From positions 1-39,128 of the forward strand of contig JAVEBF010000051.1 of NCBI GenBank assembly GCA_051941275.1: a DNA stretch of 39,128 nucleotides, written 5' to 3'. Below the pieces are notes generated by a model that saw only the letters and a program-made list of their open reading frames with translations, had not been told where the DNA came from and did not search any database. The position numbers were made by a program, and so were the translations under genes. Shown here piece by piece: positions 25,813 to 33,037 of this stretch. How positions within the stretch are numbered: the stretch's first letter is position 1; every line of letters begins with the position of its first letter. Origin of the DNA: Dirinaria sp. TL-2023a. Lineage: Eukaryota.

Positions 25813-28800
25813 ATGACCAAGGGCCACAATCCCACCAAGCATGTCTCCAACGCCGGGCATAAGGTCGCTCGACGATTTCACGACAAAGTGATGGGCGCGT
25901 CTGAGCCCAGCCCAAGAGGAGCTCAACCACAACTGCGGACCGGTCAGAACGACTTGTGAGTGTCAGCGATCTCATTACTGATGTGCGCATTCTTGCTACC
26001 TGTTGTTGGGGGGTGTTAGTGATTCCTCAGAGAGCCTATGTCGGAACGCTCGACTCGTGACCAGATAAAGGTTGCTACTGGGCTATAGCAGGAAACGGTG
26101 CCACCTACACCACCATGGATTCACACACTTTCTTCTTATACGTTCCTCCCAAACTCCACAGTGCGAAGATTGCCTTGCAGCTGCCATTGCAACTTGCCGG
26201 TTGGCAAGCCTAGGGCGGAATGGGGTGTGTTACAAAACGCAGAGCCCAGAAACCAGCCACGAGGACCACATTGCTTTGGCATTTGCCAGTGATCAGGCTA
26301 ATACTCGTCTGTATTCCAGGAACTCGACCCAATATGAGGCATCGCCGGACACCCCATCGGCTACCACCTTCTGGTCAGAATCACCCGATGACTCTCCTCA
26401 AGATCCCCTCATGTCAGGCACTATCCGAGATTTTCAGCGCGAGCTCGGAAATGCAGACCCCTCGACATCGAACAGAATCGCAAGTGCGAAGAATGGAATG
26501 GCATCGCAGGGTCGAAATGCCGACATCGCCCCTTGGGCCAGCGACAATTCTTTCAGCACTGGTTCCTTCGATGCGAGGGATCTTTCGAGCCGAAGCGGTG
26601 CAAGCGATTTTCAAGATCCTGTATTCCGTAGTGATGACCGGAGGCCGTCGGTAATAAGCGCTACAAGCGTCAGTAGTCAAGCTTCAAAAAATTCAATGCC
26701 TACGAACAATCGACGTGCGCACAACAAGAAGCTTGCTGGGTTCTTCAACGAGGATAGCAGAGAATCATCCAAGAGCTCGGACACAAGCATAGCAACGACA
26801 GGTCAACGAGATCATTCAACTTCTTCACGTTCCAGGCGAAACAATTCTGTACATACGAACAACAGTACTGAAGGAAGACCAATATCCGAGAACAGCTCAA
26901 GGCCCCGAACCCCACCATCTAGCGAAGTCACTCCATGGCTTTTCCAAGATTTCAAGGTATGTCCACGTGTTCGTGTTTGTAATATAACTTTTCGCAAGTT
27001 TGCTTCTTGGCTGGGTGGCCCCGCGACTACTATTGGATTGTTCAAGCGCATAGAGGAATCTCGAGAGTGCAAAAAGACAAACACACTCACAATTGCATTC
27101 TCGTATCCGCACGGCGTCTTTAAATTAGCTTTGGCCGCACACCTCCGACGCACATATACCTCTGGTGCTTCGTTGTGCTCTTCCCGAGCCCAGTCTGATT
27201 CTGAGACTTACTCTTTCTCATTTCGTTGCGTTCGTCTTAAGGTCGGGGAAGGCGGTTGAGACGATGGGTTTGGTGGCTTCTTGCTTTTCTATTTTCGGTT
27301 TCGACACTTTCTGTACTCCCAAACATTCAGAGCGATCTGGGCCTTCGAGAAGACAAACACAGTCAGACACTAATGAAACATTGGTGCAGGAAATCCAGCA
27401 TTTTGGGGATGCTCTAGTCAGGGGTGCTCCTGCCGGACCTGACAGGGAACGATACACGGAAACGGATCCTTCCATGTCTTATACACATCATCATCACCAC
27501 CGACTTCATCTACCAGGCCACGGTCACCGACATTCGCGAAGCAGAGATGAACCAACGCCGCCAAAACCTCCCGCCAAAGATCCGAGCAATGGTCATGCTG
27601 TACGGCCTACAAAGGCACGCCAGGACTCTTCAGCTAGTATTCGGAACTTGAAGGACTCTATATCTGCCCCTATTGCTACCAGAAGTACATTTCCAATAAG
27701 AACTACAAGCCCCACGCCAAGCAGAGAAAGTGGTATCAGCCGTGAAGCAACCATGCCCGTTCAACGATCCCCAGCTGATGCGCATGGTGGAAAACGGTCG
27801 TTCCTGGACAAAATACGCCGCCCTAAAGGTGATCGCGGTGCCCACGATTCGCTGGCGCATCTTGCCGGTTCGACGAAATCACTACAAGACTCCATTAACA
27901 GTTCTAAATACGATGTCTCTGAGCTATCTCCCCACAGTCGAGGTAGAGAAGCGAGTGTGGCTACTTTCGATAGTGGCTCCACGGCTAGACCCGGCGATTA
28001 CGGTGAAGAATTCTCTCCTATCTCCAAAAAAGAAACCACCTCGTCGCGCATACTACACAGCCATGGAAAATTTCCAAGGCCTAGGAGAGGTTTTAGCTAT
28101 GAGAGTCAAAGCTCCAAAGAAGCAGAAAGGGCACGCCAGAACTCTGGTCCTAAGGATTCATTGTTCAGTCTAGACACTAATTTAGACGACATGGAAGGCA
28201 TTCTCAAAAAGCCCGATGACCCATCGATGAACCCTCCGCATGGGGGCATATTCACTGGGGAGCCGATCGAGGAGGAGCCTCGGAAGGTTCTCTTGGACTC
28301 GGCTCACGCTGACCCAGGCGCATGGGACGCCCCGGATTCTTGGGCGGTGAAGCGGGTAGGCGATGAAAACATGGGCCGATTACGGGAAATTGACGAAGCA
28401 GGTATACCGCAGAAGGTTGAAGATGATGGTACACCTCACTGTGTGCGGGTATTCCGAATCGATTCTACTTTTGCTACAGTCTCCACTGGCGTGAATACAA
28501 CTGTGGCAGAGATTCTACAGATCCTAGGCAAGAAGTCCTTCTTACAAGACGAACTGGACAACTACCAGATTATAATGCGCAAAAAAGATTTACAGAGGCA
28601 ACTTGCGCCTGGAGAAAGGCCTGTAGCGATTCAAAAACGGCTGCTCGAGCAGGCTGGCTATACGGCCAAGGATCGCATTGAAGAAATCGGCCGAGAAGAC
28701 AACAGCTATCTTTGTCGCTTTACCTTCGTTCCGACGAAGCTTAGTGGTTATTATAGCCTCGAGAAAGACCCCACCCACAGTAAGATGCAGAAGTTCAGTT

Positions 28801-31800
28801 CTGTCGACCTCTCTGGTAGAAGCTTGGTAACGATACCCATTACACTCTATCAGAAGGCAACAGAGATCATCTCTCTCAACCTTTCACGCAACCTTGCGCT
28901 TGACGTACCCAAAGACTTCATTCAAGGGTGTATCAACTTACGAGAGATCAAATTCATTGGTAATGAGGCATGGCAGCTTCCGCCGAGCTTCAGCCTGGCC
29001 ACGAGGCTGACCGTGCTCGATTTGTCTAATAACCGACTAGAGCAACTCGAACACGCGGAGCTGGACAAGCTGCAGAGCCTGACAAGTATCAAACTTTCGA
29101 ACAACAGATTGAGTCGTCTCCCAAACTACTTTGCAAAGTACAAGGCTCTGAGGAGTCTTAATTTGTCGTCTAATTACTTCGAGACCTTCCCGGACTTCAT
29201 ATGCGATCTGAAGTCGTTAGTTGATCTGGACATAAGCTTTAACTCGATCAAAGCTCTCCCAAGAATCGGACAGCTGACCGCTTTGGAGCGGCTGTGGGCT
29301 ACGAATAACATGCTTTCCGGGACCTTTATTGAAGAAATTCAAAACCTCAAGAACCTGAAGGAGATTGACGTCCGGTTCAACGCACTCTCAAGTATAGATA
29401 TTTTGTGCCAATTACCTCGACTAGAGCAGTTGATGGTTGGCCATAATGCGGTGTCGCAGTTCAAGGGCAGTTTCAACAAGATTCGGATCCTCTATCTTGA
29501 CCATAATCCCGTAACCGTATTCGATCTTAAAGCGCCTGCGCCGGGACTGGCATCACTGAATATTGCCTCAGCAAAGCTATCCCAGCTGGACGACGCTCTA
29601 TTTGACAAGATGCCCAATTTAACTAAACTCAACCTTGACAAGAATCACTTCGCAAGCCTGTCCAGTGAAATCTGCAAGTTAAGCAGATTGGAGTATTTGA
29701 GCATTGCACAGAACTCCCTCAGTTTTTTGCCGGCAAGTATAGGGAAGCTTGAGAGGTTACATTTTTTGGATGTTCGAGAATGCAATCTGAAGAAATTGCC
29801 ACCTGAGATTTGGAACTGCTACAGGCTTGACACTCTCAATGTGTCTTCCAACGTTTTGGAAACTTTCCCTAAGCTTGTTCCGCAGACACCACAGCAGGAT
29901 AAAGCAGCAAATGATCCGAGTACTGCCGGAAAGGACAATCCTTCTACGCCTGCATCTGCGACCGATGAATTGGGAAAACTTGAGGAATTCCAGAGTAGAA
30001 AGCCCAGCCAATCTGCCGGTGGACTTTTGAGCGTCGGTAATTCACCGGCAGGCGACAACACGAGGAATGGTTCCATTGTTTCTATATACGGTCCCGGAGG
30101 CCGTAAAGCGTCAGTAGTGTCCAGAAGCCCCACCGATGGGCCAATGAATCCAAATGACCGAAAGGATTCAGCCAAAGCTCACCAGAAGCTCGCAAAGACA
30201 TTTGCGAGCTCGCTGCGTCACCTATACATAGCGGACAACCGTTTGACCGACGATGTATTTGATGAGATCAACATGCTTCCAGAGTTAAGGGTACTCAACC
30301 TCTCCTACAATGAGCTATATGACATCCCTCAAGGCTCGCTCCGTCGGTGGCAGCACATTAATGAGCTCTATTTGTCGGGGAACGAGTTGACCAGTCTTCC
30401 GTCAGAAGATCTAGAGGAGATTACCTCGCTCAAGGTATTACACATCAACGGTAATAAGTTCCAGCAGCTCCCTGCGGAACTGGGAAAGCTTCATAAACTC
30501 GCAATATTAGATGTTGGCAGCAACCATCTCAGGTACAATATCTCGAATTGGCCCTATGACTGGAACTGGAATTGGAACAGAAATCTCAAGTACCTCAATT
30601 TTTCTGGTAACAAGCGCTTCAATATCAAACCCAGTCGAGGTTTCGGCACCGCAGGAGGACAGCAGATAGACCTTACCAGCTTTTCCACTTTAAACAGCCT
30701 TCGAATTCTCGGCCTAATGGATGTCACACTGACAACTCCAGCTGTGCCCGAGCAGAACGAAGATCGAAGGGTACGCACATCTGGTTCGCTAGCAGGGGCC
30801 ATGACCTATGGTATGGCCGATAGCCTTGGGAAGCACGAGCATCTCTCAACTATCGATATGATGGTACCTAAATTTCGAGGGCATGAGACAGAAACACTTC
30901 TTGGGATGTTCGATGGCCAAGCCTCCTCAGCTGGAGGCTCGAAATTAGCGCAGTATCTTCATGACAATTTCCAGATCCAATTCTCAGAAGAATTGAGCAA
31001 ATTAATACCCGACAAAGACACGCCAACCGACGCCTTGAGAAGGACGTTCTTAGCATTGAATAAGGATCTTGCGACCGCTGCAAGCCAGTCGTTTGATGAA
31101 AAGGAGCACCGAACTCCTCAAATCGGCCACCGAGGGTCTATCGCAGCGCAGAAGCTTACGGCGGATGATATCAACGCAGGCGGTGTTGCCACTGTCGCGT
31201 TTCTTGACAATATGGAACTGTACCTGGCCAACGTGGGAGATGCTCAAGCGTACCTTTTCCAATCGGACGGGGGCTCCAGAAGTTTGAGCCGCAAGCATAG
31301 CCCTGAGCGGGAACGGGAGAGAATTAGAGATGCTGGAGGCTATGTTTCGCGTCATGGAAAACTCAACGATGTCTTGGAAGTCTCGCGGGCTTTTGGATAT
31401 ATACAAATGATGCCGGCCGTTATGGCCGCGCCTGAAGTTACCCAGATTACCCTCAAGGAAAACGACGAAATGATCTTGATCGCCTCCAGGGAACTATGGG
31501 AATACCTCAGTCCAGAATTCGTCGTTGACGTTGCGCGTTCCGAGCGTGGAGATTTGATGCGAGCAGCTCAAAAGTTGCGTGATCTGGCCATGGCTTTTGG
31601 TGCAACGGGCAAGATTATGGTCATGATAATTGGCGTCAGTGACCTCAAGAAGCGTGAGCGCAACCGTTATAGGGGACAAAGTCTGTCAATGGGTCCTACC
31701 CGCGAGCAAGATGATCTATTCCCTACCAAGACCAGGACCAAACGCCGGGAGACAGACCGTCCCGATGATTCAATCTTGCAAAGACTCGATAAAGAGATTG

Positions 31801-33037
31801 AAGCCCCTACAGGAGATTTAGCAATTGTCTTTACGGATATTAAAAGCTCGACGGCGCTTTGGGAGTCGAATGATCTCGCAATGCGGGCAGCGATCAAAAT
31901 CCACAACCAGACTATGAGACGGCAATTGCGTCTTATCGGTGGGTATGAAGTTAAGACTGAAGGTGACGCTTTCATGGTTTGCTTTCCAACAGCCACTTCT
32001 GCCCTCTTGTGGTGCTTCAATGCCCAACAGGCGCTTATAGACGCCCCATGGCCTAGTGAGATCCTCAACAGCGTCCACTGTCAGGAAGTGCAGGACGCAG
32101 ACGACACTGTGATATTCCGTGGGCTTTCAGTCCGCATGGGTATTCACTGGGGAAACCCTGTATGTGAAATGGATCCAGTGACAAGACGTATGGATTACTT
32201 TGGACCCATGGTTAATCGAGCAGCCCGTGTCTCGGCGGCAGCAGACGGCGGACAGATCTTCGTCTCGTCGGACTTCATTGGTGAGGTCCAACGCACGCTC
32301 GAAACCTACGTTGACTCCGAGCGATCTGGGTCTACAGACTCAGAGGAAAGCATGAGTGACGACGCTATGAGCACGGCAATCCGTCGGGAGCTAAGATCTC
32401 TTAGCAGTCAAGGGTTCGAAGTCAAGGATCTGGGCCTGATGAAATTGAAAGGTCTTGAGAATGCAGAATATGTCTACATGATGTATCCGCATTCGCTAGC
32501 CGGCCGATTAACAGCGAAGCAGCAACAAGCTGATGCCGAGGCCGCCGCTGCCGCGAATCAAGCTGCGAGCATGTCGAAAGATAGCCAGCTCGCAATCGAC
32601 ACGCAGAACGTGTGGGATTTGTGGAGTGTTAGTCTGCGACTTGAGATGCTTTGTAGCGTCCTGGAATGCCCCGATGCCACCTCATTGCAGCCTCCCGAAA
32701 CATCGCTTTTGGAAAGAATGAAGAACCGAGGTGGGGAGCAGACTGATAGATTCATGGTTTCGTTTTTGGAGCACCAAATCTCGCGCATTGAGGTATGTTC
32801 GGCCTTCACCGATCCCTGCTTCCTGCCGGTCCCACCCCGACTACATGTACTGACTAATGGTCTCAGACTTGTGTCACGACGCTCTCTATGCGCAATCTTA
32901 TTAGGCCATTTGAGGCTGGTCGCAGTCTTCTGGAGCAAGCGTGCCCGATGGATGATGTACTGCAGGAACTCTCCGCACAGCTAGCGGAGTTCAAGGCGTT
33001 GAAGAATAAGACCGGCCCAAACATTCATCCGGCCTGA
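25813..33037 (+). CDS. CYR1: Fungal adenylate cyclase, about 2117 aa; exons 25813-25955 (tentative), 26320-26956, 27390-32792, 32867-33037
   Basis: G-alpha-binding region (LDTNLDDMEGI), WDAPDSW, Ras-association domain (CVRVFRIDSTF), many LRRs, PP2C-like domain (GMFDG), class III cyclase (IVFTDIKSST, VKTEGDAFMV, RMGIHWG, DYFGPMVNRAARV) and a C-terminal helical segment. Introns 25956-26319, 26957-27389 and 32793-32866 have consensus donor, branch and acceptor sites and preserve frame. Exon 1 is supported only by phase match and ATG context. Confidence 0.95.

Follow-up and report, generated by a model that had tools for sequence, protein, structure and literature searches.

The CYR1 locus

The window analyzed here is a 39,128-nucleotide (nt) stretch of DNA from Dirinaria sp. 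TL-2023a (contig JAVEBF010000051.1), and it carries CYR1, the gene for a Cyr1-type adenylate cyclase of a lichen-forming ascomycete. We focus on the second intron of CYR1, in which an ATG opens a frame of 42 codons that runs into exon 3 and may provide the enzyme with a second N-terminus. Cyr1 is the single cyclic AMP (cAMP) source in ascomycetes, integrating Ras, G-protein, and CO2/nutrient signals, and its N-terminal region and membrane association are poorly understood. The protein encoded in the window resembles the fungal Ras/G-alpha-regulated class III cyclases (S. cerevisiae Cyr1, C. albicans Cyr1, M. oryzae MAC1, and N. crassa cr-1) in the order of its parts, which runs from G-alpha-binding through RA, LRR, and PP2C to the cyclase domain. 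Like the fungal Cyr1 family, it lacks a transmembrane segment, and the annotated 2117-residue protein P0123 is the ordinary full-length form. What differs is a conserved in-frame start within an intron of the gene in the window, no second N-terminal form of the family being described in the literature searched.

The exon-3 frame (27129–32984) contains the full Cyr1-type domain set, as identified by Pfam on protein P0002: the cyclase domain (PF00211, E 2.6e-24), PP2C (PF00481, E 9.6e-57), and, N-terminal of PP2C, LRR_8, LRR_4, and LRR_14, RA_3 (PF23010, E 1.8e-32), and Ad_cyc_g-alpha (PF08509, E 1.5e-8). Exons 1 and 2 together encode the 259–260 residues that a shorter form would lose, and the junction lies at residue 260 of P0123. 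The claim of a first-pass annotation of this DNA that a short form would keep every known domain is therefore sound, all Pfam domains being in exon 3. The features of the locus are collected in Table 1.

Table 1. Features of CYR1 and its second intron, numbered along the window; domain coordinates were converted from Pfam matches on P0002.
Feature	Position	Strand	Description and evidence
CYR1 exon 1	25813..25955	+	Full-length start codon at 25813 (MTKGHNPTKH...); translation, RNA joint 25955>26320 in X1, X2
CYR1 intron 1	25956..26319	+	364 nt, unusually long; GT..AG; spliced in X1, X2 contigs
CYR1 exon 2	26320..26956	+	Ends ...TPWLFQDFK; translation
CYR1 intron 2	26957..27389	+	433 nt; GT..AG; spliced in X1, X2, X3 RNA
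5′ intron element	26957..27010	+	GTRWGY, then YCACGTGTYCGTGTTTG, then CAAGTTTGC; alignment and exon-2-frame translations
ATG-free stretch of intron 2	26962..27263	+	Holds the pyrimidine-rich tract (~27176-27232) and TATA-like strings (~27120-27170)
Candidate alternative start codon	27264..27266	+	ATG in ACGATGG; A at -3, G at +4
42-codon intronic frame	27264..27389	+	MGLVASCFSIFGFD...TNETLVQ; stop-free, in frame with exon 3
Branch-site-like ACTAAT	27369..27374	+	CTRAY column conserved in alignment of introns
CYR1 exon 3	27390..32790	+	Carries every recognized domain; Pfam matches, RNA joint 32790/32865
G-alpha-binding domain	28134-28214	+	Pfam
RA domain	28443-28727	+	Pfam
LRR region	~28941-30461	+	Pfam
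PP2C domain	30855-31613	+	Pfam
Cyclase domain	31806-32273	+	Pfam
CYR1 intron 3	32791..32864	+	74 nt; joint in X1-X3, also in X4 with a short side
CYR1 exon 4	32865..33037	+	C-terminal 56-57 residues to the stop; end counted from translation; frame-2 translation equals the P0123 C-terminus

Intron 2 is real and normally removed, and the main CYR1 mRNA lacks its 433 nt. The RNA evidence consists of contigs from a lichen metatranscriptome of ~5x depth, comprising four runs of one study (X1–X4), of which X1–X3 represent one sample. Contigs of X1, X2, and X3 carry the joint 26956/27390 (listed as 26954>27388, cut +2), which skips 433 nt with GT..AG borders and bears out the intron limits of the first-pass annotation in all three runs of that sample. 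The public model P0123, whose exon 3 is identical to that of the window, uses the same junction. The X4 contigs over 28217–32545 are ~91% identical to the window (88 differing letters in 952 and 214 in 2310); their source is probably a related fungus, sampled separately within that study.

An in-frame start codon within intron 2

Intron 2 begins with the donor GTATGT at 26957 and ends with the acceptor CAG, whose last base is 27389. The first-pass annotation had described an ATG at 27264 in the context ACGATGG, preceded by a pyrimidine-rich tract and followed by a stop-free frame into exon 3; the tract is present at ~27176–27232, and our translation of the frame agrees with the earlier one letter for letter. 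The intron contains three ATGs against 6.7 expected, none of them between −431 and −126 relative to exon 3. The 305 nt immediately upstream of 27264 are thus devoid of ATG, and 27264 would be the first AUG, in frame and in good context, of a transcript begun in this stretch, which we regard as a candidate promoter and 5′ leader (26962..27263). Taken alone, the window makes a weak case for an intronic frame beyond chance, because its skewed composition leaves few stop triplets in any frame: within the last 126 nt, a part rich in T and poor in A gives way to one rich in A and poor in T, and the three frames together contain two stop triplets.

Recurrence of the start codon in orthologous introns

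The case for the intronic start is built on its recurrence across species, at the level of DNA and of protein. A metagenome scan returned 48 DNA loci. Eighteen lichen-fungus loci have an intron of 319–441 nt at the same site, and together with the window they represent ~11 distinct lineages. Seven non-lichen fungal loci have no intron at the site (L024, L028, L031, L032, L033, L043, and L044), reading contiguously through ..PW.[FY]Q.F.D[VI]..[YF]G.AP, and a short, stop-ridden intron of ~100–234 nt occupies it in the non-lichen L030 and L041/L045. Within this sample, the long intron is a feature of Lecanoromycetes. The whole-intron MAFFT alignment was trusted at the two intron ends only, and pairwise nucleotide identity with free end gaps was uninformative, shuffled controls scoring equally high, so the figures for four-fold sites alone were used.

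Three observations on these introns bear on coincidence. First, the last 126 nt are free of stops in frame 0 in the window, L001/L003, L008–L015, and L018/L022, and the stop counts are bimodal, with no lineage having exactly one stop. Second, an in-frame ATG is found exactly at −126 in the window, L008–L015, L018, and the otherwise closed L020, and all four starts that could be tested on DNA are ATG. Third, four-fold sites of exon 3 are near saturation, with identities of 0.36 between window and L001, 0.33 between window and L008, and 0.25 between window and L018; neutral descent therefore gives no account of an ATG shared at a fixed distance. If the closed lineages, with three frames each, are taken to represent equilibrium, 4 of their 21 frames have no stop, which gives a chance of ~0.19 for 42 open codons. 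When an in-frame ATG within a 12-codon window is also demanded, the expectation is ~3% per lineage by simple arithmetic on stop counts rather than by a fitted model, against the 4 of 11 lineages observed. Judged on these sequences, the combination of ATG and open frame would be clearly above chance across species.

The protein relatives extend this picture. With residues 1–520 of the exon-3 frame as the query, we analyzed the best 120 of 560 matches, most of which are prokaryote-style open reading frame (ORF) calls on contigs from lichen genomes or metagenomes and so show whatever is in frame upstream of the acceptor. Upstream of the junction, the frame is open for 33 codons or more in 48 of the 92 genomic ORF-called relatives and for fewer than 33 in 12, and the other 32 start further downstream or failed the junction pattern; the remaining matches are 27 NCBI gene models and one spliced, RNA-type record (P0038). 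Closed introns correspond to the class that starts downstream: on a tree of 122 sequences, which omits nine proteins lacking the anchor motif, L004 adjoins P0102, L014 adjoins P0111, and L020 adjoins P0092, and further closed loci are placed likewise (L007 with P0109, L019 with P0093, and L021 with P0097). Each of the seven major clades, told apart by eye, has open members; the named members of these clades include Dirinaria, Heterodermia, Physcia, Umbilicaria/Lasallia, Trapelia, Lepraria, and many Teloschistales. In our reading, the arrangement dates far back within Lecanoromycetes and has undergone repeated loss.

The open peptides start alike, with Met, a small residue, and about ten hydrophobic residues that often close with Gly and an acidic residue. 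Mean Kyte–Doolittle hydropathy over the 48 peptides is +1.30 for residues 2–13 versus −0.90 for the remainder. With the conserved Met placed by an approximate, hand-set offset, its distance to the acceptor is most commonly 42 codons (14 of 48 peptides), followed by 39 codons in 9 and 43 codons in 8. A purine opens the codon before the conserved Met in 25 of the 25 peptides in which that Met is internal to the ORF call (19 A and 6 G). Near the other end of the peptide, a conserved [TA]N arises because the branch-site-like ACTAAT reads Thr-Asn in the intronic frame.

Evidence against a translated frame

Several observations weigh against translation of the intronic frame, and we gather them here. 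The protein tally was ascertained through prokaryote-style ORF calling, its sequences are phylogenetically non-independent, and the leading M of an ORF call need not be ATG where only protein was compared. In the DNA sample, which is unbiased, the frame is open in just four lineages and closed in the other seven: the last 126 nt hold 2–5 frame-0 stops in L004–6, L007, L014, L016, L019/23, L020/40, and L021, and the acceptor itself forms an in-frame TAG in four closed lineages. Close relatives differ in state, with L021 closed and L008 open, and with L016 and L020 closed and L018 open. The ATG block is kept while the frame is lost in L007, L014, L019, and L020. In all, about half of the lineages are broken by stops, frameshifts, or an in-frame TAG acceptor, and the intronic frame is therefore not essential.

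Sequence composition and divergence point the same way. Few stops occur in any frame of the last 126 nt, and frame 2 lacks them altogether in 5 of 11 lineages. The T-rich block encodes hydrophobic residues whichever of its three frames is read; the hydrophobic N-terminus recurs, yet base composition may be partly behind it. Peptide divergence is 1.1–4.6 times that of exon-3 residues 1–300, and 2–4.6 times in most close comparisons. In the L008 group, variation along the locus is greatest in these 126 nt, and their changes are mostly non-synonymous; between L008 and L009, they contain 6 differences (1 synonymous and 4 non-synonymous codon changes), and the rest of the intron contains 3 in 291 nt. 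The frame-0 codon-usage log-likelihood per codon is −0.33 in the window and −0.07 to −0.12 in L001, L008, and L018, against +0.09 to +0.25 for held-out exons, in a test that is weakly discriminating.

The transcript data are thin. No RNA contig of X1–X4 lies in the interior of intron 2, a weak negative given that these are contigs only and that rare transcripts would escape. RNA depth in the bins spanning 26918–27465 is fully accounted for by their exon parts, and no RNA record has its start in intron 2 in these sparse data. Among 161 non-NCBI long proteins, the one recognizable as RNA-type by a spliced intron 3 (P0038) has the full canonical N-terminus, in a test without power. The intronic promoter proposed by the first-pass annotation is thus unsupported, both the canonical joint of the RNA contigs and the canonical P0038 being weak negatives.

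Many of these observations would be expected of a non-coding intron element. According to this explanation, the ATG block ~126 nt and a pyrimidine-rich motif ~60 nt before the acceptor are cis-elements, such as U-rich sequences that act in splicing ahead of the branch site, or a site for a transcription factor; no protein starts there, and the frame is a by-product of composition and shared descent. Fungal introns often contain pyrimidine tracts between donor and branch site. The scarcity of stop triplets in all frames, including the two in the window's 126 nt, the hydrophobic translation of the T-rich block in every frame, the even division of the lineages with an ATG block into four open (window, L001, L008, and L018) and four closed (L007, L014, L019/23, and L020), the hypervariability with mostly non-synonymous change in the L008 group, the codon usage unlike that of exons, and the exclusively canonical splicing in RNA all fit it. 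So does the alternation of Cys with Trp in the peptides, since TGY/TGG swaps are expected if it is a TG and freedom from stops that are maintained.

Five features are left unexplained by a non-coding element. First, the 126-nt spacing is exact across clades with saturated synonymous sites. Second, the purine at −3 is invariant in the 25 peptides examined. Third, single-stop lineages are absent. Fourth, L001 and L003 differ at four positions of a 156-nt frame, all of them third-position and all synonymous, whereas elsewhere the same pair has 11 mismatches and one gap in 275 nt of upstream intron and 20 synonymous and 13 non-synonymous codon differences in exon 3. Fifth, the peptides of Umbilicariaceae sequences with overall identities of 90% or more are 35, 36, and 37 codons long; their insertions and deletions are therefore in whole codons. 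In clade E1 (P0113–P0121), moreover, the peptide and the first 300 exon-3 residues are equally conserved, with p-distances of 0.284 and 0.265. A structured element also finds no backing: an Rfam scan of 26800–27500 at E up to 1 gave zero matches, and neither the whole of intron 2 nor its last 150 nt folds more stably than shuffled sequences (z +0.64 and +0.50). On balance, we consider the non-coding element the main rival to an intron-internal start, though a rather unlikely explanation.

Two further ideas about non-coding function were dropped along the way. A small nucleolar RNA or other structured RNA, and a donor-to-branch "zipper" stem, were set aside on the window's folds, which are no better than those of shuffles. 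The ATGATG start of some relatives can be read as part of a box C/D, a reading abandoned for want of a CUGA downstream of the window ATG.

Alternative splicing as a possible source of the intronic peptide

The frame could also be reached by splicing rather than by a new transcript start. An AG just before the ATG might sometimes serve as the 3′ splice site, inserting 42–44 codons between exons 2 and 3 of the full-length protein. Such AGs are present in the window, as GAG/ACGATG at 27260/27261, and in L008, as TAG/GAAATTATG, and use of the AG at 27259–27260 preserves the frame with exon 2. Some public models are built in this manner: among the 24 NCBI models with a recognizable junction, 15 contain intron-derived residues, and P0031, P0048, P0051, and P0213 join FQDFK 1–3 codons before the conserved Met. 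These models, however, appear to be ab initio predictions, which we assume here, and the RNA contigs give a single joint for intron 2. In L018, the ATG is immediately preceded by a stop and not by an AG. An alternative splice site also has no need for the conserved ATG and the −3 purine and hence gives no account of either, and we consider it very improbable.

The NCBI models are of interest in their own right. They number 27 among the best 120 matches, with the junction pattern not found in 3; 9 of the other 24 use the RNA-supported FQDFK/E.. junction. Two models (P0028 and P0053) start inside intron 2. The public models of this gene that disagree are found among relatives P0014–P0061, P0187, P0212, and P0213. 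With the intronic frame spliced in by 15 of 24 models, CYR1 is annotated inconsistently in lichen genomes.

The putative lipid anchor

The first-pass annotation had interpreted the intronic start as a lipid anchor on the basis of Met-Gly-x-x-x-Ser and a nearby Cys. In such a dual-acylated membrane isoform, Gly2 would be myristoylated and Cys7 palmitoylated, and the anchor would be the purpose of the short form; it is a special case of an intron-internal start and does not exclude it. The window peptide MGLVASC fits, as a sequence match, the PROSITE-type N-myristoylation pattern G-{EDRKHPFYW}-x(2)-[STAGCN]-{P} and has its Cys at position 7, and the nearest relative, P0003, keeps MGLVAAC. With Met-Gly, Ser at 6, and a nearby Cys, the peptide resembles the SH4-type N-termini of G-alpha-i, Src-family kinases, and fungal G-alpha. 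In dual-acylated SH4-type N-termini, the Cys is as a rule at position 3, unlike the Cys7 of the window.

Conservation does not favor the anchor. The pattern is matched by 2 of the 48 peptides, namely those of the window and P0003, and P0003 has an extra Met directly in front (MMG) that, if used, would block exposure of Gly2. Gly2 itself is found in 9 of 48 peptides; in Gly2 lineages apart from the window and P0003, the pattern is broken by Phe at 3 or by Val, Arg, or His at 6. Within the first 10 residues, Cys is present in 22 of 48 peptides and Trp in 21 of 48, so that Trp replaces the putative palmitoylation site in about half. The trait shared across CYR1 lineages is a short hydrophobic stretch and not an acylation motif. 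The anchor also depends on the existence of the putative short transcript. The proposed motif is thus not conserved, and dual acylation may be at most a lineage-specific possibility for the window's lineage rather than a conserved function; as the explanation of the intronic start, we rate it quite improbable.

Other features of the CYR1 introns

The first 25–55 nt of intron 2, which include a CACGTG palindrome, show conservation between clades that have reached saturation at synonymous sites. This 5′ intron element is common to the window, L001, L007, and L019, and is partial in L008 and L021. The exon-2 frame runs open for 300 nt into intron 2, as far as a TGA at 27257–27259, 4 nt before the ATG. 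We treat this read-through as chance rather than as a meaningful feature; its length varies among relatives, from 33 to 198 nt in other loci and reaching 450 nt in L016.

The flanking introns have open stretches of their own. In intron 1, the 251 nt that precede exon 2 contain no stop in the exon-2 frame, and no Met either. Orthologues of intron 3 are open and in frame in P0003, P0006, P0182, and P0186, where the ORF calls read through into exon 4, and the NCBI model P0182 retains intron 3 as coding; in the window, the 74-nt intron 3 shifts the frame.

A model of the intronic start and its significance

Weighing both sides, we propose that Cyr1 may have a real alternative N-terminus from an intron-internal start, a proposal in which our confidence is evenly poised. 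In this model, the 3′ third of intron 2 would also serve as the opening coding segment of a shorter transcript begun inside the intron, with ATG 27264 as its first AUG. Such a transcript would have no donor upstream of the branch site and acceptor, which would be left unspliced, and 42 codons would be translated before exon 3. The product of ~1899 residues would lack the first 259–260 disordered residues of Cyr1 and retain the G-alpha-binding, RA, LRR, PP2C, and cyclase domains behind a fast-evolving leader that opens with ~12 hydrophobic residues. The main targets of selection seem to be the start codon, its context, and the length and openness of the frame, with the peptide sequence under weak selection.

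The original observation is borne out and is not peculiar to one genome, and the idea of an alternative isoform is upheld in part. The in-frame ATG and open frame are kept in many Lecanoromycetes, and the lipid anchor and the intronic promoter found no support; in the orthologous introns, stops or frameshifts interrupt the frame in about half, and Met-Gly is mostly absent. A bolder version combines all the elements: a second promoter in intron 2 would have operated through most of Lecanoromycetes history, directing a headless cyclase with a hydrophobic leader to another membrane or compartment, would often have been lost, and in a Dirinaria-like lineage would have seen its leader turned into a myristoyl-plus-palmitoyl anchor. 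We regard this scenario as improbable. If it is true, one gene would supply a lichen-forming fungus with two spatially separate cAMP sources.

In the titles and abstracts of the literature searched, we found no description of a second or acylated N-terminal form of a fungal Cyr1. The proposed mechanism has parallels in alternative transcription start site usage: a study in Cryptococcus (bioRxiv 10.1101/2023.07.18.549460) and a fungal review (PMC9604717) deal with internal starts that lead to a downstream first AUG and a different N-terminus. There the start sites were measured, whereas here the start site is a candidate proposed from sequence. If real, the intron-start Cyr1 would be a fresh example of an alternative-promoter isoform, in a central signaling enzyme.

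The finding would be instructive either way. Should the frame prove untranslated, it would warn that a start codon, a good context, and an open frame found throughout a clade can persist in an intron. If true, the conserved second N-terminus would be a natural experiment on the role of the first 259 residues of Cyr1, and it would offer a handle on compartmentalized cAMP signaling in fungi that are hard to study genetically.

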